Position numbers and translations under genes: made by a program. A stretch of 41,212 nucleotides of DNA, taken from the NCBI GenBank assembly GCA_944384495.1, contig CALWTP010000063.1:1-41212 (forward strand), in the 5' to 3' direction. The DNA comes from an uncultured Clostridia bacterium. Its GTDB lineage: Bacteria; Bacillota; Clostridia; Christensenellales; UBA1242. Numbering within the stretch: position 1 is the stretch's first letter; every line of letters begins with the position of its first letter. Below the pieces are notes generated by a model that searched no databases, had not been told where the DNA came from, and saw only the letters and a program-made list of their open reading frames with translations. Shown piece after piece: positions 1,908 to 41,212 of this stretch.

Positions 1908-2322
1908 GGGGGTTTTGGAAATAAATTGAATGAAATTTTAAGATTTTTTTGTAGATATATAATATATGCGATAATTATAGAAAAATATACAATAAAATAA
2001 GGCTTAAACGATAAAAAATAATTTAAAATTTATTATTTAAATAAAATTAAAATTAATATTATTTTTTTTTATTAAAAAACTTATTTATCATAAATTTATA
2101 TTATTCGTCATCCAAAAAAAATACCCCTAAAAACATCAATTTAATTCCTTTAAATTTCAGCCTTTAAGGGTATTTTCATAATATTAATTTGTTTAATTTA
2201 TTTTTTCTCCAAGAAGAAAAATTTGATAATTTAATATTATTTTTTATATTAAAAATTAAAAAAGAAAATTATTTTTTGTAAAACCTTTATTTCCTAATGA
2301 TTTTTGTAATATTTTCCATTTT

Positions 2323-4056: not shown

Positions 4057-4066
4057 AATAAACTCC

Positions 4067-15400: not shown

Positions 15401-18400
15401 CTTTCTTTGACCACTTTGGAAGCTCCAAATCTCAGTTTTAATAGTGCCACGAGGACACTAAGCTGGAATGATGTTGGACAAAATACATATTATGACATCT
15501 ATGTCGATGATGTATGCGTTGTAGAAGGATATAGAGGCAGTGTACTAGCTTCTGAAAATATGATAAGCATAAACCTTGACAGCTTGGGAGATATTGATTG
15601 GCAAAATAGAAAGGAGGTTGTGGTAAAGACTGTAAATCCAAGTTATCTCGACTCGGAAGATTCAAATGTTATATACATAAAACAGTTGGCGCCAATACTA
15701 AATCTCAATATTTCATCCGCCCAAAATCAGTATCAGGCCTCGTTTAATATAACAACTGACATTGAATACATCAGCCATATTCTTTTAAATAATGAAATTG
15801 TCGCAAGTTACAACTCCTCGTCGGCGACAGGGAGTTTTGCCTTAGACGATCCTTCTGTAACCGTATTTGATTTACAGGTGTGTGCAAAAGACAACGGAAA
15901 TTACTACTACTTAGACTCTATCATCACAACTTTTGAACTTCATGATATAAACGAGAGTAATTTTGAATTGACACTTGATGGAGATATGCTTAAATGGACG
16001 CAATTAGACTCGCAAATCGTTGGACAGCCAGAAAACAAAATTAAGTATACACTTGTTATCACCAGTGGTGGAAAATCATATGATATCAGCACTTTTGATC
16101 TTGAATATTCCATTCAAGAGATAGAAGAGGCAATTGGTGAGGTATTGTCAGATACTGTCAATATAAAAGTGGTGGCAAATGTATTAAACTATACTTTCAC
16201 TCAAACCGATGGACAGGCAAGGGGATATTATGGTCAAAAAGAGAGCACCGAGGAGACAACAACCAAATTAAATAAAGTAGCACAAATAACTGTAAATTAT
16301 TTAGTTGATAGCACTCAAAGCCTAGACCTAGACAAATACTTAGAAAGTTACGCACAGCTTTCATGGAACGACGAATGGAGTTCTTATCAAAATGTGAAAT
16401 TTTTAATCAAAGTTTCAAATTCAAATTCTGTCTTGCTCGAAACAACGGTGGGACAAGTTGTCAGTCAGGATTACAGCCTTTCACTGCAAGACGGAATTTA
16501 CACATTAAGGCTAAATAAAGCTTTAATATCGGCAATAAATACCACTGTTGAGATCACTGTTATAGTGCAGGGGAATATAAATTCTCAGCCAACTTCTGTG
16601 ACTATCAGCAGGTTAAATAGCATAGCAGAGGCTTCGGTTGATGGTGATGGCATTTTGACAGTAGACGTAAGTGAAACACAGGATTTAATAGGAGAGGGAA
16701 TCAATTTACTGCTTGAGTTGAGACTGGGACAAGATATAGTAAATTATACCTTCAGTGCTCAACAACAGCTTAATTTAAACAGTGAAGAACTTGGTCTCCT
16801 TTACGGCAAATATGGAGCATATTCGATAAGAATTATTGCAATTGATCAAAATAATCGAGTTTTACCATCTGGTGATGCATATATGATTACGGGGAACAAA
16901 CTTCAAGGTATAGATCAGCTGATAATCAATCAAAGCGGTGATATAGAGATAACTGTGATTGCCGATGATCTTTCTGACATTGTTTTCCATGCGAAAACCA
17001 TGGTAGGAGCAAATGAAGTTATAAAGACTTTCTTACCAGATCAAAATGAAAGTAGCAATGTTTATACGATATCAATGCTGGAAATGCTCGAACTTTTCTT
17101 TAATGATGCTGATGGTACAAGTGGATATTTATTTGAACAAATTTATAACTTTGAAATTACGGTGAGTAAGTCAGACTCGGTGACAGCGGACTGGAAAGAA
17201 ATCTCTTTTGGCTATAAATTTGAATCATTGCAAAATCAAGCAAAGATACTTAGATCAAACGATCTAAGTCGTGATTACATCATAATCGGTGCCCTTGCGG
17301 ATAGCATCTTGAATGATCCAACACGTGCCCTAATCGTCAGCATAAGAGATGGGTCCACCGTGACAAACATTAAATTGAATTCACTTATGTTAATCTTGCT
17401 TCGTGGTTATTGGAAAACAACATCACAGCAAGATAAGGGGACATTTGTAACCACACAAGGTAATGATGGAGCAACATATACTCCTTGTTATGGAGTTTGT
17501 TTAAATGACATTCTCGACGACTACTTGCCAGAGTTTGATTATGGTAATTTTGAAGTTGAAATCTCACGCATTAGCAATGAAAATAGTACCTATTATCAAT
17601 ATAATCAAACTTCGTTTGAAGTAAAACGATTAAATGAAATTATAAATCTTGAGATATATGACAATGTTCTATCTTGGCAGTGGATTAAGCCTGCAGATTT
17701 TATGGCAGACCCAACATTCCAAGCAGTCTCATATTATGTGGTTATTGATCAGATTACTAATGATGGTCTTTCAAATGTAAAAAAGCTTCTTGTAAATTCA
17801 GCATCTCTTGATTTAAGAGGGGTGAATGAAATTATTCCAGGAAACAGATATCAAATTTCTGTGATAGCTTTGCCAAATGCCGATAATCAAACCGTGATAA
17901 GCTCGAAGGCTGTTGTTTATGGCAGTGAAGTCTATAAATATGCCACCCCTATTTCACTTGAGGTAAAGGATGGAAAAATAACATTTAATGCCGAGCAGTT
18001 TGAAACCAGCGCATTTATTCAAGATTTAAAGGATTATTTTGGAGAAGAAGATCCAAGCATTTCAGGTAAAACTGAGCTTTACCAAATCGTAGGTGCAAAA
18101 ACATATTACCAGCCTATAGAATTTCTCGCGAGTACATTGTTAAATCAGCGGGTTGTTTTGAGATTTATTCTGCGCGATGGAAATAGTGATACCAATACAC
18201 ACTATGATGTTGAACTTTTTGCATATCAATTGTTCCCAGATATAGAAATATTAAATGCGGATAACGTCATAGCCACAGATGAATTACATTCGTATTTTGA
18301 TCTTTTAAATTCCTATTTAAATACTAGTCGAATCGACCAATCCGTACCAGAGGGAAGAGAAACTGTAAATTTAATAGAGACGTTGTTATCTTCCTATAGA

Positions 18401-21400
18401 GGCATATCTGGCGATACTGCCCTGTTTGATGATTTTGGTAGGCAAATTCCAACAGGGATATATTCTGTAGCAATTTTTCAAACTGAGCCAAGTGGTTATC
18501 AGACACGAGAATACATAGACTCTCAGCTTTCAAATTCGGTTGTCATGTTTGTCAACCCTGCACCAAGTGTTGAATTGGAGGTAAATAATCGGGATATTGA
18601 TAGTGAAACAAATAAGAATTTTTATGAGGCCGTTGTTAATGTAGGGCAAATTTATGTCTTTGATGAAGCAAGCAGTTCCTATATAAAACGCGATGCAACT
18701 TATTATAAAATGTTAATGCGAACCAATTACCAAGAAGGAATTAAGGATTATAGTAACGATTCGGTATTGGAGTTTGATATACAATATATCAGCGATCAAT
18801 GGCTCATTTATTATAATGATGTACTCGTAGAAAATGTGATTACCACATATTCTAGCAGTAATTTTACAATAAATTTTACATTACTTCGCGACAAATTGCC
18901 GGAAATTTTAGAAGAGTATTTGGAGTGGAGAAATGTGGAGTGGCGAATTGATCTCTATGTATATACTGCTGACAGCTCTTTGATAATAGATGAAACTGAC
19001 GGGAATAATTTGACTTATGGATCACTTAATGGCAAAAGTGCGACCATCAACTTAACTTACCTGGATCTGCTGGAGACAAGTGTAAATTTCACAGATGGAA
19101 GACTTTGCGTAACGATAGACCAGGGAAGAGATAATCAGGACTCATTGCTTGTAAAATATTACTCTTCTGGTAGTGGCGAGTTAAACAAAATATATCAAAT
19201 TACTTCGAGCAATGTCTACATTGACATGGACAATTCTGGATTGTATAGTTATATCATCCTTTCAATAAATGGATCAATTTCTTATAATACAATGCGTGTT
19301 GAAAGCCAGTCATATGCGATAGCGAATAGTTATAAGCTCAACAGTCCACAGCTTTCAATATCGAACAATGATTTGTATGTAAGTATAAATTCTGTGGATC
19401 AGACTTATCATGATGATTTGCACTATTTACTCGCTAATGACCTATCATTACAAAATGGAGATGGCTATTATTACACAAGTGCAAGAGTCGAGAATACCTA
19501 TATTTTAACAAGAATTGGCCAAAATGATGAAAGTGAATTGCGGGCGGGTAGTTTTTATGTATATCTTTTAGGTAACTCTGGAAATTTTGTGTTATCCACC
19601 GATACAACCAGCACAATTCCTGGCGGTGCGGACAATCTCCTTATTTTCCAGAACACTTCAACAAGTTTAACAGCCAAAGGATATCCAATTTTCTCTTCAG
19701 ATACAGCCAGCATTAATGCAAGGATGCTACACAACATAGAAAACGATCCTTTTGTATCCAGTGGTGGAATATCTTGGGAAGTCGATAATGATCAGTTGTT
19801 AGAAGAAGATGCGGTAAACTTATATCAAATTGACATCGAATATTATACCAGATTGCAAGACGAATATGAATTAAGCCGAACGGAAACACTATATACAACT
19901 GCTACAAGTTTAAATCATACATACCTTAATGAAGCTTATCAATATTATAAAGTGTTTGTCACAGCACTAGCAGGCAGAGTGGCAACAAGCACACTTGCAA
20001 ATATAACAACAATTGAAGGAGAAACTTACAATATCCTTCAGCCAAGAAGTTATCAGGATGGCAGTTATGTTTTAAGAGGGTTGAAGCTTTCGGCAACAAA
20101 TGGGTATCTGCAGAGAACAATGACTCCTGTACTATTGACAAATATGACAGGAATCAGTGGAGATACAATTGAGTTCTATATAGATGCCAGAGTTTATAAC
20201 AATGATATAAATAATACAAATAGGACTATAACAGATGAAAATAATGCAAGTGCCAGCGAGAGGATTCTCATTCAGGCCAGATATTTCAGTGGTAGCAGTG
20301 AAGTCTTGGAAAGCCTAGAAGGTTCGTTTATATTTAGTAGTGACACGCATATTGATACCACAGGCCTTATAAAAGTTGAGTTTGTATTAAGTCCGGGACA
20401 ATTAAATATAACAAATATGTTTGATATTGAAATCAGGAACTATATATCAAACGACAGCACTGCTCTTTTGATGTCGAGCGGACTTGTGATAGAGAATGTC
20501 ACAAAACTGCAACCAATGCTCGAACAGTACTATTCTATTGGCATACAGCAAGAAGGACAAGATTATATATCATATATTGATTTTAGCAATTACTTTGAAA
20601 GCGTGATGATTGCATCGAGCAATACGATGTACAGTATAATAGTAAAAATCACCACAACAAGTGGCGAAGAGGTCGAATATCAAATAACGCACCAGGACAA
20701 CAAGCAACTGCCAATATATGAGACCTATCAGTCTATTCAGATCCAAATTGTTGACAATCAGGAGGCAACACTAGTTGGCAGAAGATTGCTGTTAAACAGC
20801 GACATAACGACTTTCAATATTTCACCGACTCAAATAGGCGATGGCGATGGCGCTTGGCTTGAAATTGAGTGGGATGAGGATAATAGCATGTTCCGTTGGA
20901 GCTGGAATGAAGAGTCAGTTTTTGGCAACAATTATCAATACTATTTCAATATCATAATTGACGGGCGACAGACTAGTGGCATAATTGAAAATAGTTATTA
21001 TTTGCCTGTTCAAGGCGGTACAGACAACGAAATCACATCATTCTATATTCAAGCCCGTCAGATCAATCAGGCAGATAATACAATATATCTATTTAGTGAC
21101 AGTGTCAATTATCAGTTTGACAGCGGAAACATAACATATAACCTGTTTGCCGGCGGACAAGGTACTATCTCGTCACCATATCTGATTGCAAATGCCAGTC
21201 AATTTATTCAAATTTACAAGAGGAATTTTGAGGGGCAAGAGGTTTATTATCGTTTGACAAATAATATTGATTTGACTGACGAACTGATATTTATGCAAGC
21301 AGAAGAAGAGGTTGATTTTAGGGAAAAAGTCAAGGTCTTCTATGGAAACATAGATGGTAATGGAAATACAATCACAATTTCCGCTAGCGATTTTCTGGTG

Positions 21401-22333
21401 ATGAGTGAAAGCTATAGCACCACGCTTATGAACTTGCAACTTTCTTTCGATAGGTATTTTGCCTTGTTTGAAACAATATCCTCTAGTGCAAGCATTAAAA
21501 ATTTGAATATCATATTCAATATAGATATCAATACTCTTCAATCAAGCAATATTTTGATAAGCCCGCTTGCAGTATACAATCTTGGCACAATAGAAAATGT
21601 GACAATTACAGGAACAAGCATTTCCAATCTCTCAGGAAGAGGGGACAATGTGGCCTTTGTTGGAGGGATTGTTGCGGCAAATTATGGTGGCACGATCACC
21701 AATTGCCACAATGAAGCCAGCTTCAACTTTAATACCGGGCAGGGGCAAGCATTAAGATTTGCCTACGGCGCTATATCATTATTTAATGTAAATGATGGCC
21801 AAATTCAAGATAGCACCAATAGTGGTACAAAAACTTTGAGAGTTGAGACAAGCAATCAGGTATCATATTTAGCTGGAATAACGATAATAAACTCAGGTAC
21901 CATCTTAAGAAGTGGAAATGATGGAAGTTTTGATGTTGGTGCCATATCGAGTGTGTCCAGCTTTACGACGTATCAAAGCGGTAATGCCATTGTAAGTAGC
22001 GGAGTTTTATCTTTCTGTTATAACAATGGAACCCTAAACAAATCGGCCAATGTGGGCACATTAAATAAGGCAGCTATAGCGCTAACTCTAACTGGAGGCA
22101 CGATAAATTACCTGGCCGACACCCAAGGAAATAGTCTGGTCAACTCGGTAACTGCATACCTTATCATTGACAACGGAGTTAATTATGCTTCTGCAGGGTC
22201 AACGATATCCAACCAGATAAAAGTCACCATCATCCAGCCACTCGAAGAGCCAATAGACGCAGGAGATGGATACTATTTTAGAATAACGTCGGAGAATGGA
22301 GGATTGAGGGTTTCAATTACAACAGAGCCATAA
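12473..22333 (+). CDS. Giant lipoprotein (3286 aa): Ig/FN3-like module array with a C-terminal GLUG-motif module; putative surface adhesin
   Basis: Uninterrupted 9.86-kb ORF. N-terminus MKGKILTILALVVLSLVAMTAC gives a signal peptide plus a lipobox Cys. A Big_2-like first module is followed by at least 10 recurrences of an I-S/T-W strand motif. The C-terminus has SPYLIANASQFIQI... and then GLUG-type repeats (VAFVGGIVAANYGGTITN, YLAGITIINSGTILRSGN). There is no LPXTG or SLH. Confidence 0.9.
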   Translation: MKGKILTILALVVLSLVAMTACSGRPSKSGEFKSDTYVLSIGDSIDLYNEITMKNGEKSDVAISLSNGNLSLSSDNTFEAVKSGQTIAFANYNGQSFAQCKIIIRYKFSAPSNISVDENGNITWNRSFAMIEGQEVFATDYTLSIANVTGLEQIDYDSIIFEEIEVGESYQISQPGSYCVKLMANAIENDNIDSSQQSKMVVLNYKVMGRVENLNILPSSFSGNQSSTISWDEKENAIYNIYAEGFLIEENLEGNSFDYDFSFLQAGESVPFMVVAIDKNGIFLETNTSFTVTGLETPAPVYSNDTEGFISWQSVENASTYLFNFISLDDATVQQSFVVQSGQNSNQVFDSLPSGNYRLYASAQASVSQGQLYSTSTLSEVQYYTKLNTPQSTVTFDGKTLNVDIEEDSYNKNYKATIEDRVFYFSSNQFSIDLDGFDLGLHTLSITALPNPGQMIIVNQDQTSNPLNSNPFTFDFYILDTLGEIHHSLDQERNISIFSLSTIENANYYKLYINDILFDIEPYIENNIVSFTVENLNQIQPSLSGYEIMVTAGNNIDGIEYAPLSTTTKTLEILPLVQKSTSEQNGYYIWDNLDQIYQDRFEEEVSYYYEIFKSNKDYTNIEEPSVQSGWTMDGKNQNALEFGYYIIHIYAHSNDTNLYLDNTFHDKENFFTGEFFVTEQIATPTAVLTRDGEFKDNYYLSISTVEYGGGYVVYVDGEFDGQIEVNSDTSVATYTFSNTFEKVKNYDIALIATSGSRFDGQLHLNSEEYHLNIEKLPQPTFSYREAYDDYGTKIREDLTIASISNLQQIKIKIDDVIVNASSNNTIDLYSYDNEFTLNLQYIAIDGGDNQFYINSDERIVEFYRTTAPSNMHFSDGILSWDGQDTNIADYYLSIILTNQQNGNSYYSFFLGNTLNSFNLQTKINQLLDTNALFATSYRMADSVDIKLYAYALPVDDSQNAFYISSQYGTTQANQTYLSLTTLEAPNLSFNSATRTLSWNDVGQNTYYDIYVDDVCVVEGYRGSVLASENMISINLDSLGDIDWQNRKEVVVKTVNPSYLDSEDSNVIYIKQLAPILNLNISSAQNQYQASFNITTDIEYISHILLNNEIVASYNSSSATGSFALDDPSVTVFDLQVCAKDNGNYYYLDSIITTFELHDINESNFELTLDGDMLKWTQLDSQIVGQPENKIKYTLVITSGGKSYDISTFDLEYSIQEIEEAIGEVLSDTVNIKVVANVLNYTFTQTDGQARGYYGQKESTEETTTKLNKVAQITVNYLVDSTQSLDLDKYLESYAQLSWNDEWSSYQNVKFLIKVSNSNSVLLETTVGQVVSQDYSLSLQDGIYTLRLNKALISAINTTVEITVIVQGNINSQPTSVTISRLNSIAEASVDGDGILTVDVSETQDLIGEGINLLLELRLGQDIVNYTFSAQQQLNLNSEELGLLYGKYGAYSIRIIAIDQNNRVLPSGDAYMITGNKLQGIDQLIINQSGDIEITVIADDLSDIVFHAKTMVGANEVIKTFLPDQNESSNVYTISMLEMLELFFNDADGTSGYLFEQIYNFEITVSKSDSVTADWKEISFGYKFESLQNQAKILRSNDLSRDYIIIGALADSILNDPTRALIVSIRDGSTVTNIKLNSLMLILLRGYWKTTSQQDKGTFVTTQGNDGATYTPCYGVCLNDILDDYLPEFDYGNFEVEISRISNENSTYYQYNQTSFEVKRLNEIINLEIYDNVLSWQWIKPADFMADPTFQAVSYYVVIDQITNDGLSNVKKLLVNSASLDLRGVNEIIPGNRYQISVIALPNADNQTVISSKAVVYGSEVYKYATPISLEVKDGKITFNAEQFETSAFIQDLKDYFGEEDPSISGKTELYQIVGAKTYYQPIEFLASTLLNQRVVLRFILRDGNSDTNTHYDVELFAYQLFPDIEILNADNVIATDELHSYFDLLNSYLNTSRIDQSVPEGRETVNLIETLLSSYRGISGDTALFDDFGRQIPTGIYSVAIFQTEPSGYQTREYIDSQLSNSVVMFVNPAPSVELEVNNRDIDSETNKNFYEAVVNVGQIYVFDEASSSYIKRDATYYKMLMRTNYQEGIKDYSNDSVLEFDIQYISDQWLIYYNDVLVENVITTYSSSNFTINFTLLRDKLPEILEEYLEWRNVEWRIDLYVYTADSSLIIDETDGNNLTYGSLNGKSATINLTYLDLLETSVNFTDGRLCVTIDQGRDNQDSLLVKYYSSGSGELNKIYQITSSNVYIDMDNSGLYSYIILSINGSISYNTMRVESQSYAIANSYKLNSPQLSISNNDLYVSINSVDQTYHDDLHYLLANDLSLQNGDGYYYTSARVENTYILTRIGQNDESELRAGSFYVYLLGNSGNFVLSTDTTSTIPGGADNLLIFQNTSTSLTAKGYPIFSSDTASINARMLHNIENDPFVSSGGISWEVDNDQLLEEDAVNLYQIDIEYYTRLQDEYELSRTETLYTTATSLNHTYLNEAYQYYKVFVTALAGRVATSTLANITTIEGETYNILQPRSYQDGSYVLRGLKLSATNGYLQRTMTPVLLTNMTGISGDTIEFYIDARVYNNDINNTNRTITDENNASASERILIQARYFSGSSEVLESLEGSFIFSSDTHIDTTGLIKVEFVLSPGQLNITNMFDIEIRNYISNDSTALLMSSGLVIENVTKLQPMLEQYYSIGIQQEGQDYISYIDFSNYFESVMIASSNTMYSIIVKITTTSGEEVEYQITHQDNKQLPIYETYQSIQIQIVDNQEATLVGRRLLLNSDITTFNISPTQIGDGDGAWLEIEWDEDNSMFRWSWNEESVFGNNYQYYFNIIIDGRQTSGIIENSYYLPVQGGTDNEITSFYIQARQINQADNTIYLFSDSVNYQFDSGNITYNLFAGGQGTISSPYLIANASQFIQIYKRNFEGQEVYYRLTNNIDLTDELIFMQAEEEVDFREKVKVFYGNIDGNGNTITISASDFLVMSESYSTTLMNLQLSFDRYFALFETISSSASIKNLNIIFNIDINTLQSSNILISPLAVYNLGTIENVTITGTSISNLSGRGDNVAFVGGIVAANYGGTITNCHNEASFNFNTGQGQALRFAYGAISLFNVNDGQIQDSTNSGTKTLRVETSNQVSYLAGITIINSGTILRSGNDGSFDVGAISSVSSFTTYQSGNAIVSSGVLSFCYNNGTLNKSANVGTLNKAAIALTLTGGTINYLADTQGNSLVNSVTAYLIIDNGVNYASAGSTISNQIKVTIIQPLEEPIDAGDGYYFRITSENGGLRVSITTEP

Positions 22334-22531: not shown

Positions 22532-23419
22532 ATGAAAAAGATTTTTGCACTTTTTTGTCTATTGTTTTTGCTATTTCCTATAGTGTCCAGCAATAAAATA
22601 AACCTTGCATCCGATGGAGAGACACAAGAGACTGGGGCGGATGATATTATAATGTTATCACTTTCCTCGTCAAGCACACCTGTGCAGAGCATTGCGTTTT
22701 CGATAAGTGGCGAGCTGTGTGACAGGGCAGGATTAAATGCATTACAAAGAAGTGAATTTATTGATTGCTTGCTTCAAAAAATAGATCATTTAAGAACGGA
22801 ATTTTTATTAAGCCTTTCTTTAAAATATCTTCAAAATCCAATTGAGCAGTATAAAATCAACAAGGGAGTAACTCTCACTGCAGTTTCATATAATGACAAT
22901 TCGTCTTTGATTGGCTTTAGCATTATTTATGACAGCCATACCTCTTTCAATTATTACAATTCCTCTTCCTCTTCAAGTAGAGACACACAACGAGGCAACT
23001 ATTTTATTAAAAAATATATATCACAAGGGAAGTTTCCGTTTTCAAGTCAATTTGCAGGTAAAAATACAACCATAGGTCAGCGCTATAAGGAGATATTCCT
23101 ATCAGCAGCAGAAGGCAAGGATTATTATCAAGCAATATCGCAAAATTATAGTCCTAAATTTGTTTATGATTATGCTGTGGTCAACGACAAGTTGAAATCC
23201 AATGCAAACATCATCACAAAGAGTGCGGAGCAGACACATCATATATGGATTGTGGATGAGCAAAATTTGACAAACGCAAACGATATACAATTAAGCCTTA
23301 CAATGGTCAATAGAGGTGCTTGGTATTTGACTGCTTTGATTGTTGTGATGGCGGTCACTATAATCTATATTTTTATAGAATTTAAAATTAGATCAAAATT
23401 AAAAAAAACAAAAAAATAA
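22532..23419 (+). CDS. Hypothetical type-I membrane protein (295 aa): signal peptide plus C-terminal TM anchor
   Basis: N-terminus MKKIFALFCLLFLLFPIVSS. C-terminal helix WYLTALIVVMAVTIIYIFI is followed by KIRSKLKKTKK. No family recognised and the Shine-Dalgarno site is weak. Confidence 0.7.
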   Translation: MKKIFALFCLLFLLFPIVSSNKINLASDGETQETGADDIIMLSLSSSSTPVQSIAFSISGELCDRAGLNALQRSEFIDCLLQKIDHLRTEFLLSLSLKYLQNPIEQYKINKGVTLTAVSYNDNSSLIGFSIIYDSHTSFNYYNSSSSSSRDTQRGNYFIKKYISQGKFPFSSQFAGKNTTIGQRYKEIFLSAAEGKDYYQAISQNYSPKFVYDYAVVNDKLKSNANIITKSAEQTHHIWIVDEQNLTNANDIQLSLTMVNRGAWYLTALIVVMAVTIIYIFIEFKIRSKLKKTKK

Positions 23420-27494: not shown

Positions 27495-28466
27495 ATGGCC
27501 AAAAATAAAGATAATCAATCGAATGGAAATGGCAAAAGATGGGTGACTTTTATTGCAATACTGGTTTTAATTGCAATAATCGTTGTTTTGATTGTCATTT
27601 TTATACCGGCAAATACTTCGGATGCAAAGAGAATACTAAATGATGTATCTTCTTCATCTTATCTTAATGACGAGGACGAAAAATCGGCTTATCAAACTGT
27701 GGGAGAAAAACTGAGTAGTAGCACAAAAAGTTATTATATGACAGAGTATAACGACATCTTACTTCTTTCAGAAGGGATAAGTGATGTATTGCAATTTTAT
27801 GACGACTATCTGGTTTTTGCCAAAGATAACAAGGTTTTATCTTCCAACTACAAGACCATTCGAAACAATTTAAATCGAGTGAAGTCTTCCAAAGAGGATT
27901 TAAACGAATTGGTGGCGACCGTCAACAGCCTTGAAGAGGACAGCGATTCATATGTTAAAAATCTTTGGATTGATTTTAGAGGTGAGTATGTGAATTGGCT
28001 TGAGAGCAATGCGAAGGCCATCTCCGCTTTGAATAATTGCTATCAGGGATGTTTTGACAATACTCTCTCAAACAACTTAGCCTCTTCTACTATTTTAACA
28101 ACTGTTGATAATTATCTGACTTCAATCATAAACAAATTCAATGCCATTATCGACGTTGACAAGAAAAACACTTTGGATGATGTTTATTCATATTCGATTT
28201 CTGGGCAAATTCTTGGGTTCAGCAGATTTGTGAACTCCTATATTGTGGATACCACTGATATAGTTTGCTATAATTTTGAAACGACATATCAAGGGAAATA
28301 CAATTTGATAAATCAGTTCTGCGAAACCTTTGCAGAGAGTGATTTCATTGTGCTTATCGATTCTATGGATGCAGAGGGCAATATCACCAAAACATATGAA
28401 ACGACAGATATGCAGACCACAATTTTTGAGATAACAAAATCGTTTATAGAGGCAAAGGAGGGTTAA
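27495..28466 (+). CDS. Hypothetical membrane-anchored protein (323 aa, N-terminal TM helix, helical ectodomain)
   Basis: Signal-anchor WVTFIAILVLIAIIVVLIVIFI. GGAGGG Shine-Dalgarno site, 9 nt after the dnaB stop. No family recognised. Confidence 0.7.
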   Translation: MAKNKDNQSNGNGKRWVTFIAILVLIAIIVVLIVIFIPANTSDAKRILNDVSSSSYLNDEDEKSAYQTVGEKLSSSTKSYYMTEYNDILLLSEGISDVLQFYDDYLVFAKDNKVLSSNYKTIRNNLNRVKSSKEDLNELVATVNSLEEDSDSYVKNLWIDFRGEYVNWLESNAKAISALNNCYQGCFDNTLSNNLASSTILTTVDNYLTSIINKFNAIIDVDKKNTLDDVYSYSISGQILGFSRFVNSYIVDTTDIVCYNFETTYQGKYNLINQFCETFAESDFIVLIDSMDAEGNITKTYETTDMQTTIFEITKSFIEAKEG

Positions 28467-28467
28467 T

Positions 28468-29502
28468 ATGGCAAAAAGAAAATTTTTATTACCAATTCTT
28501 GCATTAATTTTAATTGTGGGGTCCATATCAATGGTTGCATGCTCGGATAAGACGACCAACACCGATGTATATAACTCTTATCTCCAAACGATTGAAAAAT
28601 TTACAGCAGACACTTCATTTTTGGTTGAAAATAATGCCAATGTATACGGCTCAAAATTCTATTTTGACAATTTCAATTATAAAACTCCAACTGGAGTAAA
28701 AATGGATGATGACGCAAACTATCAAACTTTAAATGCAATTGGACTAAATTTTATAGAAAAACACTATGACATGACAAATGAGATCAAAAAAGCTCGTAGT
28801 CTCAAAAATTCAATAGAGGATCTCAATGAAGCTTATGACCTTGTCAAGGTCGAGTACGATATGTTAATCATGATTGATTCTGATGCGACATACCAAATAT
28901 ACAATGGGTATAGCACAAGATATAAGTGGGGGGCACGTGATTTTATCAACCAGGTTTATGAATGTGCTTTTGATCTTGCTGATGTTATTATAGAAAGTGG
29001 ATATTTAGACGATATAGAGGAACTGGTAGCAGACTATTCTCAACAAGAGGAGCAGGTTGACTTAGAGTTATGGAATAGCAAACTTGAATTTTACATCGAC
29101 TATCAAAATCTTTTAGTCGCAAATGATTTTAGATTGCTTTTACTTGAAAGTGGTCAAGGGCAACAATTTGAAGGCAATAGTGATTATGTGAATATTTCTT
29201 TGCTTTTGCAGTCTTTTGCTCAGACAATTTCAACTGCTTCAAATCAACTTTTAGATGATGCCACGATGGCATACAGAAATATAAATAATATGCTTGCAAG
29301 TGAAAGACAGCTTATGCAGGAAGCTTTAGAGGATTTCAATCTGTACGAATTTATCGAAAATTATGGCGGATCGGTTGATGCATATGAAAAAGAGGAGAGG
29401 TATGCAAAGGCCTACTATAACGAGCTCTCAAAATATTTCAGTGCAGAAAACAACTTTATAAGCCAATATATCAGCTATATCCAAAGCAACATATATTCTT
29501 AA
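28468..29502 (+). CDS. Hypothetical lipoprotein (344 aa, helical)
   Basis: MAKRKFLLPILALILIVGSISMVAC gives a signal peptide plus lipobox. The ATG lies 1 nt after the upstream TAA, which suggests coupling. No family recognised. Confidence 0.7.
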   Translation: MAKRKFLLPILALILIVGSISMVACSDKTTNTDVYNSYLQTIEKFTADTSFLVENNANVYGSKFYFDNFNYKTPTGVKMDDDANYQTLNAIGLNFIEKHYDMTNEIKKARSLKNSIEDLNEAYDLVKVEYDMLIMIDSDATYQIYNGYSTRYKWGARDFINQVYECAFDLADVIIESGYLDDIEELVADYSQQEEQVDLELWNSKLEFYIDYQNLLVANDFRLLLLESGQGQQFEGNSDYVNISLLLQSFAQTISTASNQLLDDATMAYRNINNMLASERQLMQEALEDFNLYEFIENYGGSVDAYEKEERYAKAYYNELSKYFSAENNFISQYISYIQSNIYS

Positions 29503-34478: not shown

Positions 34479-35213
34479 TTAATAATTTTTATCAAACAAA
34501 TTATATCTTTCGCTGTGGATGATGCTGGCAAATAATTTTTCTTTGCTAAGAGGATAACTCTTCTCAAGCAAGGCAAGCAGATCTTTTGCATTTTGTCTTT
34601 CTGTATGTTTATCAGCAGGGCAAGGGTTATGGAAAACAGGAAAGTCTTTGCTGACTTTGGCTATATCTTTTTCTTCACAAAAGATCAGCGGTCGTATAAC
34701 CGAAAGCTCCTGTCGAGTGAGATATGATTTTGGTTTAAAAGTTGACAGTCTGCCTTCAAAAAATAGTGATAAAATAAATGTCTCAATAAGGTCATCCCGG
34801 TGATGGCCTAAAGCCACCTTGTTGCATCCCAATTCCTTTGCTTTGCTGTTCAAGATTCCTCTTCGCAAATTTGCACAAAGGGAGCATGGATTTTTTTCTT
34901 TGCGGATATCAAAAACGATTTCAAATACGTTTGATGGCACGATATACAGCATAACATTTAACTCTTCGCAAAATTTTTGAATTTGAGAAAAATCGCTTTG
35001 ACCACCGCTAAGGTCCACACAAATTGCACATAGATCAAACTTCTTATCACTAAATGATTGGTATCTTTTAAGAGCCACAAGGAGTGCTAGACTATCTTTC
35101 CCTCCAGACAGGCCGACCGCAATCTTATCTCCATCTTCAATTAAATTATAGCTTTGGCAGGCTTTTCGAAGCATACCTAAAATCTTCTGCATAACTTCCT
35201 CCGTCAAAATCAA
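34479..35213 (-). CDS. ttcA: PP-loop ATP pyrophosphatase, TtcA-like tRNA thiolation enzyme
   Basis: PP-loop SGGKDS, plus CSLC and CP..K cysteine motifs. The 244-aa size fits the TtcA/TilS-like family. Confidence 0.75.
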   Translation of the reverse strand: MILTEEVMQKILGMLRKACQSYNLIEDGDKIAVGLSGGKDSLALLVALKRYQSFSDKKFDLCAICVDLSGGQSDFSQIQKFCEELNVMLYIVPSNVFEIVFDIRKEKNPCSLCANLRRGILNSKAKELGCNKVALGHHRDDLIETFILSLFFEGRLSTFKPKSYLTRQELSVIRPLIFCEEKDIAKVSKDFPVFHNPCPADKHTERQNAKDLLALLEKSYPLSKEKLFASIIHSERYNLFDKNY

Positions 35214-35366: not shown

Positions 35367-35396
35367 TTGACAATCTTCTGCCAAAAAAGTTATAAT
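35367..35396 (+). promoter_or_regulatory. Candidate sigma-A promoter for the second giant gene
   Basis: TTGACA (35367-35372), an 18-nt spacer, then TATAAT (35391-35396). AGGAGG Shine-Dalgarno site at 35472-35477. Confidence 0.5.
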
Positions 35397-35481
35397 TTTT
35401 ATGTAATAAAAATTTAAACACAATTTTTTACAAAGATGTTTAAAAAGATCTGATTTTACAGATATTAATCAAGGAGGCAAC

Positions 35482-38400
35482 ATGAAAAAGTTTCTTGTTG
35501 GAATGTTGAGCATATTCGTACTCTTAGGAGCATCAATTTTGGCAGCGTGTGGTTCTTCCAAAATTGAGCTTACTTTATCGCAGGAAAGCATTTCAATACT
35601 CTATGATTCCTCAGAGCCAAGCCAAGAGGTCGTTGTGGCTAGTGTAACTGGTGGAAAAAATGTGGAAGTGGTTGCAAGCCCGAGCAACAGTTATGAGAAT
35701 ATCATATCTGCTTCTGCATCAAATGTTGGCTCCAACAGATGGGAGATCACCATCACAGCTTTAAACGAAGGATATGGCGAGGTTGTGGTGATGACAAACC
35801 AGGGCAATGTCTCAAAAATAATAAGTGTCGATGTTTACACAGAGGTCACCTCAATGGAGCAAAACTTTGATGAAAAAGTTGTGCGAAAGAATTACGCGAT
35901 CCGTGGAGAGACAACAAGACTTATTGAAGAGAACCTTCTTTCATTCCAACCATCTAATCTTTCACGAAGAACGATAACATGGACAGTTCAAAATCCGGTT
36001 TCCGGAGTGACAATTGATGGCCAAATGCTGACCATTGATGAAAGAGTACAACTTGACGAGATTATATTGGTTGCGACAACAGAGAACAATATTTCAACGA
36101 CAGTGACTTTGCCAATCCTTGACAATATTGCAGAAGATTTAAGCTTGTCTTGGTCTTATAGCCTTAGCGGAACCTTCACGGAGATTAACAGTGATTATAA
36201 TACTTTTGCATTAGTTCCAAATGATCCAGATGATCCGAACTATACAGGATATGTAAAATTAAACTATAACGGAGACCTTGTCATCACTCCAAGAGTTACA
36301 CTTGCAAACAGCAATGAAGACGATGGTTTTATACATGTAAACAGCCTTTCTCAGGATGACAACGGCTATCCGATCTATGCAGTTTTCGTAGATAGACAGG
36401 TAAACAATATAAACAGAAATTATCAGCTTTATTTTGAAGTTGGCTATGAGGATTATGATTATAATATCGACACCTCTGCATCTATGATCAATTTGCATGT
36501 ACGTGAAGTTGTAAATGATATTGAAATAAGAGGAGAAGATAATAGCCTAATCGCAAACAGCGAAATTACATCCTCAGTGCAAACTTTGTATTCTCAATAC
36601 CATGGCACAAATGGAGAAATGTTTAATATTTTGGTACTGCCAACAACAGTACAAAACTATTCCAACAGCTATAGGTTGGAACTGACCACAGGGAGTCTTG
36701 GCGAGCCAATTATGAGTGACAACACATCGCCAGTTGTCGTACAATATTACGATTCAATCAACTATGTTTGGCAGGAGGTTCCTCTGATTTGGGATGAGAG
36801 CAAGAATGCCTATCTCTCAAATCCAAACATCAACCTAAGTGCAAGTACGATCTATCTTAAGGCGCACCCAAATCTTTTGGTTCAAACGGCGAGCAATTTA
36901 CAGCTACGAGTTATCAGCACGGACAATGAGACGGTTTCGGCGAGCATAAACCTTGAACTCGTTCGAGCAGTGACAGAAGAGCAATTTAATAATGCCTTCA
37001 ACGATGCAGACACTACTTTTATTGTTGACAGCTCTCCAAGAGCGACAGCTTTAACCATTGCAAAGACTTTCACTCTTGTCGGACAATCAGATATACGCGG
37101 GCTTTCAGTTGAAACCAACAGTCAACATATTTCGCTTACTCAGCCAAGAAGGCTTTCAAGTAGTACGGATAGGGTAACATTTGAAATCGTATTGACATTA
37201 AATCCATCAAGCATAGGTGTGACTTCGCAAGATAGTTACCGCTTTATCCATGCAAACGGTCTTGTAAGCCGTGATTTTGAAATTGATATTTTCCTTCCGC
37301 TTACAGAAGCGGCGGTGGTATATGATCAGGGAAGCAATCTCTTTGATTCGGTCACATATAGCGTGAATAGCAATTTGGTATATAGCGATGATGGTTCCAC
37401 AGCTGCAAACACAGAAAGCCTTTCGAGAATAATGATTAAAAATGGCTCAACGATACCACTATTGTATCAATACAATTATGCAAATGGCAACTATGCAGTA
37501 GGCAACGTTCAAGTGAATTACTATGATTTGGATTTCGTTGCCGGAGAAGATGGCATTTTGACGGATGATGAAAAGTCTGCTCAGATCGCAGATTTTAAAG
37601 CTCTTTTAGACACACAAGCAGGCAGAAGCCAAATAATTGCATCTGCAAGCGAGAACACAGAGATAGGGAAGTATGCATATTTTTCACTTGACAACAGCAG
37701 TATTATCACAACAAATGTGGGCTTTACATATGCAGTTGTATCTTTCACAGGTAAAGGAATAACAGGAGCAGACGAGGATGGGAATATAACTATAAAAAGA
37801 ATAATCTTGATCGAAAGTTATATTTCTCCAAGCACACTTGCGGTTACTCCAAACACAGATCGTGAGGTTGGGCTTTATGCATCGGATACCGTATCTTCAA
37901 CCGATACCACTCTCACTCGTAAGACAATTACAATTGATTTCAGAATCAGCAATGTTACATATACAAGTCTAGACAATTTCAGGTTTGTTTCCACTGCGAT
38001 CAATTCTCAAGGCAATGCAATAATGGGCGAGGGCACAATCAGTGGCAATTCAGTATCTTGGGATAATGGCAGATATGTGCTTGAAAACATCGTGATCTCA
38101 GATCATTCAATGACATTTGATATTGTGTCGCTATCACTTCAAGGTGCTTCAAGCTTTAGCGATAATCTAAACGTTTATTATCAACTCGATGTTTTAAATA
38201 GTCAGGGCGATGCTGTTAAGCGAGATATAATGTCCACAACGATTGCAGTTGTTATACGAAGTGCACAGAGGATTGAAAGCCTGCAATGGGAAGGCGAGGA
38301 TGAGGAAGGATTATACTTTGAGCTTGGCGAGAGTGAACCACAATTTATTGTCTTGACAACTTCACCTTCAGACGCTCGAAATAAAAACATTTCATACCTA

Positions 38401-41212
38401 ATCACCGACTCGACTGGCCAAGTTGATTATACGAACGCAGCAATAGTATCAGTAGGCGATTATATCAACCAAAACAGGCTTGCATTGACATTGAACGAGG
38501 ATTTGACTCAAGGAATTACGGGTTACATCTATCTTCTTCCACAGGACGCGATCTATAATGGGCAAATTTCATATTATTTGACAAGCGAGATGACAGGAGA
38601 ACAGCCAATTCGATATACTGTATCTTTTGACAGCTTAGGGCAGATCCGCTCTGGCAGTCAGACATGGTATGACTACTTGATCGAAAATGCATATTTTATC
38701 TCAAATGCATCCATAGAAGGGGAGCAAAAAAACATCAGTTTTGCTGACATTTTATTAAAAATCAAAATCACTGTCGCAGATGGCAGAAGTTTTGAACATG
38801 CATATAGGATTTACACTGCGGAAGAATTTACTGGACGCATCGCGCTTAATCCACATTATTTCTATCGTGTTATGAACAGTTTTGAGGTGACCTATAATGG
38901 TGCAGGCATTACCTTAACTGGAGGTATTGAAGGCAGAGCATATGATGACTTGGATGGCAACAGAAGCACAATCACCTTCGATAATTCAAATGTGTTTATC
39001 AGCAAAAATAGCGGTACAATCCGAAACATCATCTTTAACGGCGAAATATCGTCTTCAAACGGATTTGTGGCAAACACAAATAGTGGAACAATCCGAAATA
39101 TCATCTTTAACGGCGAAATATCCTCTTCAAACGGATTTGTGGCAAACACAAATAGTGGAACAATTGAAAATGTCACAGTTGATGTCAATGGAACATATCC
39201 AAGCAGTTTGTCGGGTGATGGTCAATATATCGGCGGACTTGTTGGACAAAATAGTGGAACAATTTCAAACTCAAGCGTACTTGGACTGTCAATCACTGGC
39301 GGAACAGGCGAAACAGACTATGTTGGTGGTATCGCCGGTCAAAATAGCGGAACGATTACAGGAAGCAGAGTCGAGTTTTACAACCTTAGCGAAGAGGGCA
39401 CAGAAGCTACCGGTATAAATACATTTACTGGAGTGAATATCGGCGGACTTGTCGGCAAGGCGCAAGATGGCTCAATTCTTACTTTAAGCTATGCATACAA
39501 CTATGCTTATGAAGACTCGCCATTTTCGCCATTTTCGCCATTTTCGCCATTTGCAGGCTTTGCCCTGATTGCAACAAGCAGTGGAACAATTACAGTAGAC
39601 CAAGTGTTTGCCTATGGGATATCGGGTACTATAATAGGCACAAATGCCACAGTGCAAGGTGAATATTACAATGTTTACGAAGCAGATGGCACATATGATG
39701 AGAGTACTACTGCAGAATATTATGAAGGAAGAGAGGAAGACCTCGATCTTTCTGACAACCTCGATCTTTCTGACAACTATATTGAGCCGGGCGAAGAGGG
39801 CTTCTTGACCTATGTCAATAATGGAGGGGCATACTTTAGAAATATTTATCAAGCTGAGAAAGTCCAGTCGCTTGATACCGCTCAAATCAAAACAATTACC
39901 GATATAAATGGCTATTATAAATCTCTCGCTGTCACAGAGGAGAGCACTGACGCGGATACCGCTAGCGATCCTTCTTTTGGCAGAGGAATCTTGTTCTACT
40001 ATGCAATAGAGCAAGGTATTGGCGGACTGACACAGAGCGCATTAAATGATTTGGATGAGCTTAATACAATTTCTCTTTCAGAGCTTATCTTGATTGGCAA
40101 CTTGTCCACAGATTATCTTATTATCACCTCATCAAATAGCGGTGTTTTAAGAATTATTGGAAGCGATATCAAGATCTTGGGCACTGGATCGGTTGAGCTT
40201 AAACTGTATTCAAAACAGGATGTAAGCATAAATAAGACTTTTGAAATTGAAGTGATCTATTCGATGTCACAACCAGAAATTTCTTGGACCGACAGCAGTG
40301 GAAGGACAAATATTGTCAGCGAAAATTCAATTTCTTATCTGCAACGCACAACAACAAGATATTATGTTGTGACCTATCAAAATCCTTATGTGATTTTGGG
40401 CAATCAAGCAACCGAGTACAGCCTGATCAGAAATAATGTGACGATTGCAACTGATGTGACACCTGCTGATGGCACAGCGGTTTCTTGCGAACCTAGCGGA
40501 AATATAATTACAGTGACGGCCGAACAAGACTCTGTCGAGAGTAAAATCACTGTAAAAACAGGGATTTTTGGTGAAGAGTCAATCTATCAAGAGGCAATCA
40601 ATGCCGAATTTAACAGGACTTTCACTATAAGCCCAACAGACGGAGTTATTGAATTCAGTGTCTCTGAAGGAGGTTTGTCGATCACACCATCCACAAATGC
40701 TGTTGTGCGTGTAATGATCACAACCACAGCCGATGATGACAACAAAACAATTACTCCACAACTGAGAGATGAAAATAATATCCTTCTGCCGGCTTATACT
40801 CCTAAGCCAGATGGCGACTATGCAAAATATGATTATATTTATTATCTTGCGACAGATCAAAGCACTCCATTTATGGGGGCATATGTAAGGCTTGCATCGC
40901 AAAGCGGTCCATCCAATGGTCAATACAGCTTTATATTTGAAATAACTTTTGAGATCACGCAAGCCTATAGATCGCTTATAAGCCGTGATCAGTCATTTGA
41001 TGTTTCCTTTATAAGTTATAGCGGTAATGACAGCTATTATCAGACCGAGGGAAGTGCAACATTTAAACTAAATCTTTCAAAACAAAACTTTACAAATATC
41101 AACATAAGCAACTATCTTATCTCTCAATCTCAATGGCAGTCAAGTGGTAGTGAATATATAACCGTTCATACAATAAGTGATCCTGTGGGAGTGCTTGCTC
41201 CTGGAGGAAGCT
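35482..41212 (+). CDS. Second giant lipoprotein, 5' partial (more than 1910 aa, runs off the right edge): Ig-like modules plus an internal GLUG-motif module
   Basis: It is not in the ORF track. I translated frame 1 line by line from ATG 35482 to 41212 and found no stop. N-terminus MKKFLVGMLSIFVLLGASILAAC has the canonical LAAC lipobox. Two Big_2-like modules follow. GLUG repeats are YIGGLVGQNSGTISNS, YVGGIAGQNSGTITGS and NIGGLVGKAQDGSI. Confidence 0.88.
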   Translation, partial: MKKFLVGMLSIFVLLGASILAACGSSKIELTLSQESISILYDSSEPSQEVVVASVTGGKNVEVVASPSNSYENIISASASNVGSNRWEITITALNEGYGEVVVMTNQGNVSKIISVDVYTEVTSMEQNFDEKVVRKNYAIRGETTRLIEENLLSFQPSNLSRRTITWTVQNPVSGVTIDGQMLTIDERVQLDEIILVATTENNISTTVTLPILDNIAEDLSLSWSYSLSGTFTEINSDYNTFALVPNDPDDPNYTGYVKLNYNGDLVITPRVTLANSNEDDGFIHVNSLSQDDNGYPIYAVFVDRQVNNINRNYQLYFEVGYEDYDYNIDTSASMINLHVREVVNDIEIRGEDNSLIANSEITSSVQTLYSQYHGTNGEMFNILVLPTTVQNYSNSYRLELTTGSLGEPIMSDNTSPVVVQYYDSINYVWQEVPLIWDESKNAYLSNPNINLSASTIYLKAHPNLLVQTASNLQLRVISTDNETVSASINLELVRAVTEEQFNNAFNDADTTFIVDSSPRATALTIAKTFTLVGQSDIRGLSVETNSQHISLTQPRRLSSSTDRVTFEIVLTLNPSSIGVTSQDSYRFIHANGLVSRDFEIDIFLPLTEAAVVYDQGSNLFDSVTYSVNSNLVYSDDGSTAANTESLSRIMIKNGSTIPLLYQYNYANGNYAVGNVQVNYYDLDFVAGEDGILTDDEKSAQIADFKALLDTQAGRSQIIASASENTEIGKYAYFSLDNSSIITTNVGFTYAVVSFTGKGITGADEDGNITIKRIILIESYISPSTLAVTPNTDREVGLYASDTVSSTDTTLTRKTITIDFRISNVTYTSLDNFRFVSTAINSQGNAIMGEGTISGNSVSWDNGRYVLENIVISDHSMTFDIVSLSLQGASSFSDNLNVYYQLDVLNSQGDAVKRDIMSTTIAVVIRSAQRIESLQWEGEDEEGLYFELGESEPQFIVLTTSPSDARNKNISYLITDSTGQVDYTNAAIVSVGDYINQNRLALTLNEDLTQGITGYIYLLPQDAIYNGQISYYLTSEMTGEQPIRYTVSFDSLGQIRSGSQTWYDYLIENAYFISNASIEGEQKNISFADILLKIKITVADGRSFEHAYRIYTAEEFTGRIALNPHYFYRVMNSFEVTYNGAGITLTGGIEGRAYDDLDGNRSTITFDNSNVFISKNSGTIRNIIFNGEISSSNGFVANTNSGTIRNIIFNGEISSSNGFVANTNSGTIENVTVDVNGTYPSSLSGDGQYIGGLVGQNSGTISNSSVLGLSITGGTGETDYVGGIAGQNSGTITGSRVEFYNLSEEGTEATGINTFTGVNIGGLVGKAQDGSILTLSYAYNYAYEDSPFSPFSPFSPFAGFALIATSSGTITVDQVFAYGISGTIIGTNATVQGEYYNVYEADGTYDESTTAEYYEGREEDLDLSDNLDLSDNYIEPGEEGFLTYVNNGGAYFRNIYQAEKVQSLDTAQIKTITDINGYYKSLAVTEESTDADTASDPSFGRGILFYYAIEQGIGGLTQSALNDLDELNTISLSELILIGNLSTDYLIITSSNSGVLRIIGSDIKILGTGSVELKLYSKQDVSINKTFEIEVIYSMSQPEISWTDSSGRTNIVSENSISYLQRTTTRYYVVTYQNPYVILGNQATEYSLIRNNVTIATDVTPADGTAVSCEPSGNIITVTAEQDSVESKITVKTGIFGEESIYQEAINAEFNRTFTISPTDGVIEFSVSEGGLSITPSTNAVVRVMITTTADDDNKTITPQLRDENNILLPAYTPKPDGDYAKYDYIYYLATDQSTPFMGAYVRLASQSGPSNGQYSFIFEITFEITQAYRSLISRDQSFDVSFISYSGNDSYYQTEGSATFKLNLSKQNFTNINISNYLISQSQWQSSGSEYITVHTISDPVGVLAPGGS
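39010..39153 (+). repeat. In-frame 72-nt tandem duplication (2 full units plus a partial third) inside the giant gene
   Basis: Units 39010-39081 and 39082-39153 both encode SGTIRNIIFNGEISSSNGFVANTN. They differ at 4 of 72 nt, all synonymous third positions. A third unit starts SGTIENV. Confidence 0.95.
39517..39552 (+). repeat. Perfect 9-nt x4 in-frame tandem repeat (TCGCCATTT)4 encoding (SPF)4
   Basis: Read directly from the sequence. Its reverse complement produces the WRKWRKWRKW run in the antisense track ORF. Confidence 0.95.
39742..39777 (+). repeat. Perfect 18-nt x2 in-frame tandem repeat encoding (LDLSDN)2
   Basis: CTCGATCTTTCTGACAAC occurs twice in tandem (39742-39759 and 39760-39777). 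Confidence 0.95.

Follow-up and report, generated by a model that had tools for sequence, protein, structure and literature searches.

The classical adhesins of Gram-positive bacteria, such as Ebh of Staphylococcus aureus, the serine-rich repeat proteins and the LPXTG MSCRAMMs, are giant, surface-exposed proteins that contain immunoglobulin-like (Ig-like) or beta-solenoid blocks, and the right-handed beta-helix is also familiar as the scaffold of pectate-lyase-type enzymes and phage depolymerases. Giant1-5 of Apilactobacillus kunkeei are extracellular proteins of 3,000-8,000 amino acids with beta-solenoid and Ig-like parts, which have been read as adhesive or interaction proteins, and which carry a Sec/SPI signal, a C-terminal SH3b-like wall-binding DUF5776 and long, imperfect, mostly alpha-helical repeats (PMC12863079). 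The giants described from gut Clostridia are of the RCC1 type (in Oscillospiraceae), the Listeria-Bacteroides-repeat type and the YG-repeat type; they have been proposed to bind hosts or prey, and those of the RCC1 type are reported to be without membrane anchors (bioRxiv 10.1101/2023.11.21.568195). In the IgA1 protease of Streptococcus pneumoniae, the active site is gated by the N-terminal domain, which has the form of a beta-helix (PMC7695701). The present work concerns a gene that begins at position 35482 of a contig from an uncultured Clostridia bacterium (CALWTP010000063.1, whose 41,212 bp, analysed at full length, are called the window below), that runs in the forward direction off the end of the window, and that almost certainly encodes a real giant surface lipoprotein.

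Judged by its sequence, the stretch 35482-41212 belongs to a genuine, expressed-looking gene that is unnamed and appears restricted to one lineage, and whose predicted product, unlike the repeat-built giants, does not seem to be constructed from repeats. An earlier note, made from the letters of the window alone, had presented this stretch as the second of two giant lipoprotein genes, the other being giant gene 1 at 12473-22333 on the forward strand (3,286 amino acids). The part of the protein described in that note proves to be only the first 28%: the full-length homologues measure 6,000-7,100 amino acids, about twice the length of the product of giant gene 1, and the stretch is best understood as the 5' 28% of a gene of ~20 kb with a predicted product of ~6,700 residues and ~730 kDa.

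Reading frame, family and full size

Frame 1 is open from the ATG at 35482 to the edge of the window, as the earlier note had stated: translation of 35482-41211 gives 1910 codons without a stop, and the five other frames of the same interval contain 75-155 stops apiece. With the base composition of the window (33% A and 30% T, which gives a stop-codon probability of 0.073), the chance of 1910 consecutive open codons is ~1e-63. The claim that the gene is missing from the list of open reading frames (ORFs) supplied with the window is also confirmed, but what had been presented as an anomaly is a trivial edge effect rather than a biological oddity, because the program that lists the ORFs omits those that run off the end of the sequence. 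Since the window is the whole 41,212-bp contig, the gene is cut by the contig end and the assembly broke inside it. The share of the window that the two giant genes were said to occupy, 15.6 of 41.2 kb or 38%, agrees with our count (9861 + 5731 = 15,592 nt, or 37.8%), and it understates their size, as the second gene is expected to run ~14.5 kb past the contig.

The full extent of the gene was reconstructed from its homologues. A scan of GTDB representative genomes returned 22 loci in metagenome-assembled genomes (MAGs) of uncultured gut Clostridia or Firmicutes, with 29-60% identity over residues 1-1910, from human (UMGS1812, UMGS2054), mouse (MGBC), water deer and other animal (BRZ_*) samples. 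At 14 of these loci the frame was still open at the 10-kb limit of the flanking sequence, which corresponds to proteins longer than 5,150-5,250 amino acids, and a scan of metagenomes with the last 800 residues obtained up to that point reached the stop after another 1,450-1,640 residues. Three of the metagenome ORFs (5,478-5,571 amino acids) start, where the flanking sequence runs out, precisely at the first GLUG module, near residue ~1,090, which implies a total length of ~6,600-6,800 amino acids.

When a profile built from residues 24-1095 was run exhaustively with HMMER on a set of 1.84 billion representative proteins (E <= 1e-3), it found 78 relatives and not a single match outside the family. 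Some 45 of the relatives, as clusters at 50% identity, are full-length (6,029-7,082 amino acids), and nearly all align from residue ~24. The closest, P0087 (6,772 amino acids) and P0007 (6,746 amino acids), are 58% identical to the 1910 residues of the window, and the mature form of the closest full-length protein has a mass of ~733 kDa. A word-index protein search, by comparison, returned only two or three truncated relatives, whether a single sequence or a 20-sequence profile was used as the query. No source gives a family name to any member, and on the evidence of these searches the giant protein appears to be found only in one group of uncultured gut Clostridia.

Contigs frequently end within this gene; at least six of those examined do so, the window included. 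Two other incomplete copies have a different form. The 3,285-residue protein P0001 of locus L001 is 99% identical to the copy in locus L018 (>5,180 amino acids) up to residue 3269, after which 16 unrelated residues, a stop codon and a LacI-family gene follow, so that this copy is either a large deletion variant or the product of a chimeric contig. In locus L002, a frameshift at residue ~2,290 (7840-7900 of that locus) splits the copy into ORFs of 2,296 and at least 1,977 amino acids on a contig with a coverage of 3.9x, and may be either a sequencing error or the mark of a pseudogene.

Lipoprotein signal and expression signals

The start codon, a lipoprotein signal peptide of 22 residues and the lipobox cysteine, Cys23 (35548-35550), occupy 35482-35550, as assigned from the translation and from comparison with the homologues. 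The N-terminus, MKKFLVGMLSIFVLLGASILAAC, has lysines at positions 2 and 3, an uncharged hydrophobic core with no charged residue at -10 to -5, and the sequence L-A-A-C ending in Cys23. When checked by eye, it agrees with a PROSITE PS51257-type rule, which calls for K or R somewhere among residues 1-7, a hydrophobic core free of charges, and [LVI][ASTVI][GAS]-C with the cysteine at 15-35. The lipobox pattern occurs in 50 of 51 long homologues, with Cys23 in most of them, and the remaining homologue reads ..ILWAC, also with Cys23; the lipoprotein signal that the earlier note had called textbook thus deserves the description. The signal peptide is the sole hydrophobic segment of the window protein and of two full-length homologues that were scanned, and none of five full-length homologues contains an LP.TG motif. 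From the lipobox rule and its conservation, Sec export followed by Lgt/Lsp lipidation at Cys23 is predicted.

The signals for expression lie upstream of the gene. A sigma-70-type promoter at 35367-35396, with TTGACA at 35367-35372, an 18-nt spacer and TATAAT at 35391-35396, matches the consensus at 12 of 12 positions and is the best promoter site in the region, and the Shine-Dalgarno sequence AGGAGG at 35472-35477 stands 4 nt ahead of the ATG. Both had been pointed out in the earlier note, and both are conserved among the orthologues. An alignment of 10 orthologous upstream regions reveals, in addition, a conserved block of the 5' untranslated region (UTR) at 35436-35477, which runs ATGTTTAAA ... 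TTACAGATATTAAnCAAGGAGG and ends in the AGGAGG. The promoter hexamers, the ribosome-binding site and the 5' UTR block are kept in 9 of the 10 orthologous intergenic regions, the rest of which is unalignable AT-rich DNA, and this pattern suggests that the giant gene has a strong promoter maintained by selection. An Rfam search with the 5' UTR block gave no match. Some gene callers place the start of the protein inside the block (..DIKQGG-MKKF).

Domain architecture and composition

The structural analysis of the part of the protein encoded in the window relied on AlphaFold models built from 4-sequence alignments, with a mean predicted local distance difference test score (pLDDT) of 47 in the model of residues 24-1095 and of 40 in that of residues 1096-1910. 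The residues next to the membrane, 24-223 (35551-36150), are predicted to form two all-beta Ig-like sandwich domains, with a pLDDT of 70-87 and support from Foldseek. They are followed by a beta-rich region, residues 224-1095 (36151-38766), in which Ig-like-looking patches extend to ~590, the pLDDT is low to moderate, and there is no match in Pfam or the PDB. The Foldseek matches to the model of residues 24-1095 are arrays of tandem domains from Ig, cadherin and S-layer proteins (SbsC and Sap), with E values of 1e-8 to 1e-5 and a probability of 1.0. The Pfam Ig families (Big_2 PF02368, fn3 PF00041 and their relatives) gave no match at E <= 0.1 in the window protein or its orthologues. The Ig-like modules announced in the earlier note thus hold as a predicted fold for the first ~200 mature residues, and more weakly as far as ~590, but not as members of a Pfam Ig family; the beta-sandwich is a predicted resemblance of fold, without family membership.

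The next region, residues 1096-1400 (38767-39681), is a GLUG-type module, putatively a beta-helix, and here the evidence includes a match at the level of sequence. The only Pfam match in the window protein is to GLUG (PF07581) at residues 1247-1272 (39220-39297), with 24.6 bits and an E value of 3e-5 against a gathering threshold of 20.5 bits, so that the GLUG module of the earlier note is upheld by a match that lies above the cut-off though it is marginal; a search for Big_2, GLUG and fn3 had been proposed there, and the last of the three families is absent like the first. Among the orthologues, GLUG reaches a sub-threshold 15.1 bits in L038 and has no match in L003, and membership in the GLUG family, as judged by sequence, is accordingly marginal. 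In a 20-sequence alignment, residues 1096-1400 show a recurring rung motif, ..VGG[IL]VG.N.G.I.NS.V.G..I.., and their model shows short-strand rungs with a pLDDT of 50-77. By hhalign the module has two relatives, one at the C-terminus of the product of giant gene 1 (probability 94%, E 1e-7) and one within the orthologues, at residues ~4700-5000 (probability 96%, E 2e-9). The last region, residues 1401-1910 (39682-41212), is mostly beta in the translation and the model and is cut by the contig end, beyond which ~4,800 further residues are expected. For residues 1096-1910, the sole interpretable Foldseek match is to the S. pneumoniae IgA1 protease structure 6xjb, with a weak E value of 0.08 on a model with a pLDDT of 40.

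Searches for other known domains and for repeats were negative. NCBIfam gave no match to the window protein, Pfam and NCBIfam returned at most a marginal GLUG in the product of giant gene 1 and in the full-length orthologues, and sequence-profile searches of the PDB with six family alignments that span most of the length found no credible match. A BLASTP self-comparison of 5,193-residue orthologues was empty, and the best hhalign probability in a comparison of 12 segments of residues 24-1910 was 17%; the GLUG-type modules are the only parts of the protein that are related to one another.

Three short tandem duplications, all in frame and all found by TRF, lie in the window copy. A 72-nt duplication at 39006-39164 (2.2 copies) adds one 24-residue rung, and a 9-nt unit, SPFSPFSPFSPF, occurs four times at 39517-39552; both are absent from 19 aligned orthologues. 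An 18-nt DLDLSDN-type repeat at 39740-39777 (2.1 copies) has no orthologue match, the alignment of the 19 orthologues, which ends at 39741, covering just its first bases. All three duplications are either recent slippage events or assembly artefacts.

The mature part of the protein encoded in the window has an isoelectric point of 4.2 and contains 11.6% Ser, 9.4% Thr, 7.9% Asn, 5.9% Tyr, 0.1% Cys and 2.0% Lys, the last of these against 8.8% in eight housekeeping proteins of the window. Both giant proteins show a similar bias: those of 35482-41212 and 12473-22333 have 2.0% and 2.9% Lys against 8.8%, with Lys and Arg together at 5.2% against 13.1% in the eight housekeeping proteins, and they are nearly free of Cys. 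The depletion of Lys in both may be an adaptation against trypsin-like gut proteases.

Neighbourhood and evolution

All loci have the same neighbour upstream of the giant gene, a divergent TtcA-like PP-loop gene, located in the window at 34479-35213 on the reverse strand (assigned by Pfam and NCBIfam, below the NCBIfam cut-off). Locus L038, which encodes P0087, contains a complete gene of 20,319 nt, preceded by Gate, TatD, KsgA and the TtcA-like PP-loop gene in the same order as in the window, and followed by RadC; in the metagenome loci the downstream genes are RadC, NUDIX and UvrB. The full block from DnaB to KsgA is common to the window and L003. No secretion, sortase, glycosylation, immunity or phage genes adjoin the giant gene. 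It belongs to the core genes of one uncultured gut Clostridia lineage, in which it is inherited vertically at a single locus, and it is not a mobile or phage element.

The giant protein evolves much faster than its neighbours. Across 10 loci it is 31-56% identical to the window copy, against 69-74% for the TtcA-like gene, and in L003, the most similar genome with full synteny, the identities are 91% for DnaB, 77% for GluRS and 56% for the giant protein. The divergence is unevenly distributed over the protein. When 41 full-length sequences are aligned, the column conservation, taken as the share of them that have the consensus residue, is 0.40-0.53 for residues 1-2200, and with them for all of the window part, 0.55-0.68 over residues 2300-3200, where the consensus has GLUG-type rungs, and 0.13-0.30 over residues 5000-6400, after which it rises slightly around a Gly-rich motif near the C-terminus. 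This conserved motif, GDGGNGGAGGSxYR, follows the hypervariable region (for example, at ~6590-6640 of P0087) and is preceded by short G-X-Y runs; a collagen-like reading was rejected, since the runs do not exceed 4-5 triplets. Given an N-terminal anchor, the window would therefore encode a conserved, membrane-proximal stalk, and the most variable part of the protein would be the most distal. Within species (the P0006 cluster, and P0087 versus P0007), identity is 99-100% except in patches of 80-93% at residues ~3500-5000, which suggest recombination or changes in the number of rungs.

Proposed function and alternative explanations

The best explanation of the gene as a whole, to which we assign a probability of roughly 0.6, is that it encodes a giant surface fibril or adhesin anchored by a lipid at its N-terminus. 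Transcription would proceed from the strong, conserved sigma-70-type promoter, as sequence and conservation indicate, and the product would be exported by Sec and lipidated by Lgt/Lsp on Cys23, which would fix its N-terminus to the outside of the cytoplasmic membrane. The portion that the window encodes would form the membrane-proximal stalk, made of at least two Ig-like domains, beta-rich domains and the first of several GLUG-type modules. The remainder, as seen in homologues only, would contribute a conserved central beta-helix at ~2300-3200, further beta-helix modules and a hypervariable distal third. The whole would make a long, non-repetitive fibril that passes through and beyond the cell wall and takes part in adhesion to, or recognition of, host mucus, glycans, food particles or other cells, with reach provided by the conserved stalk and core and specificity or antigenic variation by the variable distal part. 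Because no binding or adhesion domain has been identified, we infer this last step from the anatomy of the protein and from its evolutionary pattern, and for the specific function of an adhesin or recognition fibril we see about an even chance.

Several observations weigh against this explanation, in addition to the lack of a binding domain. The fold models are poor overall, which leaves the greater part of the fold assignment provisional; expression, export and lipidation are all predictions from sequence; and the C-terminal 72% of this genome's copy lies outside the data. Neither lgt nor lspA is among the genes of the contig, which covers only 41 kb of the genome. The most conserved part of the family is the central region of predicted beta-helix, which would equally fit an enzyme or a structural scaffold, and the differences within species fall at ~3500-5000 rather than at the extreme distal end, which complicates the idea of a variable tip.

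Other roles for such a protein were weighed against the lipid-anchored fibril. An abundant, lipid-tethered S-layer-like or glycocalyx-like layer that protects the envelope, for example against host proteases, bile or phage, would account for the conservation of the consensus promoter and ribosome-binding site, for the occurrence of the gene at one syntenic locus, as a core gene, throughout the related genomes examined, and for an acidic, Cys-free, Ser/Thr-rich composition like that of S-layer proteins, in which the reduction of Lys to 2.0% from 8.8% would remove trypsin sites; the S-layer proteins SbsC and Sap are also among the Foldseek matches. A coat of this kind is nevertheless unlikely, since Pfam finds neither SLH nor CWB2, nor any other domain by which S-layers are anchored or assemble themselves, over the full length, a monomer of 730 kDa is far above the known size of S-layer subunits, and a variable distal third suits interaction with ligands or the immune system better than it suits packing in a lattice. 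The beta-helices could instead serve as polysaccharide lyase or hydrolase domains, or as substrate-gating domains, of a surface-tethered enzyme that degrades host or dietary polymers, as right-handed beta-helices do underlie pectate-lyase-type enzymes and phage depolymerases, the central region of predicted beta-helix is the most conserved part of the family, and the structure that Foldseek matches best to the GLUG module, among those open to interpretation, is 6xjb, with its gating N-terminal beta-helix. That match is weak and comes from a model of low confidence, and no catalytic family, Peptidase_M26 included, is found by Pfam, NCBIfam or PDB profiles in 6,772 residues, which makes an enzyme a decidedly improbable reading.

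A still smaller probability attaches to a polymorphic toxin or contact-dependent competition protein, in which a variable C-terminal effector would be delivered to neighbouring cells. The great size, the surface location and the poor conservation of the C-terminal third between species would suit it, but the variable region is ~1,400 residues long rather than a short terminal cassette and is followed by the conserved Gly-rich motif, RadC invariably comes next downstream and no small ORF resembling an immunity gene is seen there, domains of the Rhs, LXG, PT-TG or toxin kinds are absent, and the C-termini are 99-100% identical among strains of one species; this reading is disfavoured. More generally, no catalytic, wall-binding or toxin domains were detected in the giant protein. 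That the stretch is no gene at all, but a frame open by chance, a pseudogene or an artefact of assembly, has a negligible probability and is already refuted for the family as a whole: the ORF is incomplete within the window, some copies in the databases are cut short or split (L001 stops at 3,285 amino acids, L002 is frameshifted, and L015 stops at 2,550 amino acids) and the tandem duplications of the window copy are seen nowhere else, but against this stand the chance probability of ~1e-63, ~45 independent full-length copies of 6-7 thousand residues in which protein sequence, signal peptide, promoter and synteny are conserved, the fact that all the duplications are in frame, and the origin of the truncated copies in low-coverage or possibly chimeric contigs. 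A bolder proposal, which we regard as doubtful, goes beyond the lipid-anchored fibril. It would make the protein the representative of an unrecognised class of envelope organelle, consisting of one ~730-kDa non-repeat polypeptide with an N-terminal lipid tether, in which ~6,000 residues outside the GLUG-type modules have no detectable relatives, the highly conserved core at ~2300-3200 would act as a machine of a new kind for receptor binding or catalysis, and the depletion of Lys would protect against host proteases.

Giant surface proteins decide how gut bacteria attach and how they are recognized by their surroundings, and the one described here is invisible to annotation. It is a core, syntenic gene of its lineage in gut MAGs from human, mouse and deer, and the two giant genes between them occupy 38% of the contig; it is therefore a plausible major antigen and host-interface molecule. 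The family is also a large reservoir of protein domains without detectable relatives, and it carries a practical warning, in that genes of this kind are lost at contig edges by ORF tracks and gene callers. The giant protein is mechanistically unsurprising, yet it is a large, conserved and unannotated candidate for a host-interface molecule in uncultured gut bacteria.

Giant gene 1 and other genes of the window

Giant gene 1 belongs to a separate family, for which 10 homologues of 3,148-3,729 amino acids were found. Its product begins with a lipoprotein-type signal, MKGKILTILALVVLSLVAMTAC, and no Pfam domain was found in it. The possibility that it is a paralogue of the gene at 35482 was rejected, as the two have no matches besides the GLUG-type module that they share. 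The closest homologue, P0091 in locus L041, occupies a conserved position, after the sporulation genes YabP and YabQ and before BipA and DnaB.

The 295-residue ORF at 22532-23419, directly after giant gene 1, has no Pfam match; its product combines a signal peptide with a membrane anchor at the C-terminus, which has a basic tail. An ORF of similar size (285-302 amino acids) follows the orthologues of giant gene 1 in L039, L040 and L041, and the 295-residue product may be a partner protein of giant gene 1. Between DnaB and GluRS lie two further ORFs with no Pfam match, at 27495-28466 (323 amino acids, with an N-terminal transmembrane segment) and 28468-29502 (344 amino acids), which are conserved in L003 at 56% and 44% identity; a 323-residue ORF also follows DnaB in L041.

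Comparison with known systems

The earlier note recognised no characterised adhesin family in this architecture, and our searches lead to the same conclusion, with one GLUG match in Pfam, none in NCBIfam or in sequence searches of the PDB, and no name for the family in any source. The resemblance to the GLUG-motif beta-helix proteins (PF07581; 6xjb) consists of the rung pattern, the one GLUG match, the recurrence of the module and the weak match to 6xjb. The giant protein has no M26 protease, G5 or LPXTG parts, and differs from the GLUG proteins in that the module makes up less than 10% of its length, the other ~6,000 residues having no relatives outside the family. Firmicute S-layer proteins differ from it in their wall anchoring, as neither SLH nor CWB2 nor an equivalent Pfam match is present over its full length, and the polymorphic toxins of the Rhs/LXG/CdiA-like kind differ in having a short toxin cassette and an adjacent immunity gene, both of which are absent here.

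With the classical giant adhesins, the protein shares its size class and, by prediction, its surface exposure and its Ig-like and beta-solenoid building blocks, but it has no LPXTG or C-terminal membrane anchor, no Ser-rich repeats, no accessory Sec locus nearby and no detected homology to them, and its length, unlike that of the repeat-built adhesins of the Ebh, SiiE and LapA/BapA type, is not made up of tandem homologous repeats. The repeat giants of gut Clostridia are similar in habitat, in taxonomic class and in being very large predicted surface proteins of mammalian gut metagenomes; they consist of tandem known Pfam repeats, whereas the family described here has neither Pfam repeats nor internal ones and has a conserved lipoprotein anchor. 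As judged from the descriptions of the A. kunkeei Giants, the protein is set apart from Giant1-5 by its N-terminal lipid anchor, its beta-rich structure and its lack of internal repeats, and it has no sequence similarity to them, although no direct comparison was made. It resembles them in belonging to a host-associated Firmicute, in being encoded in a small region of which a large share is devoted to several giant secreted proteins, in its beta-solenoid and Ig-like parts, as far as these are predicted, in its presumed role in adhesion or interaction, in its atypical, Asn/Ser-rich composition, in the small number of its Pfam matches and in its rapid divergence.

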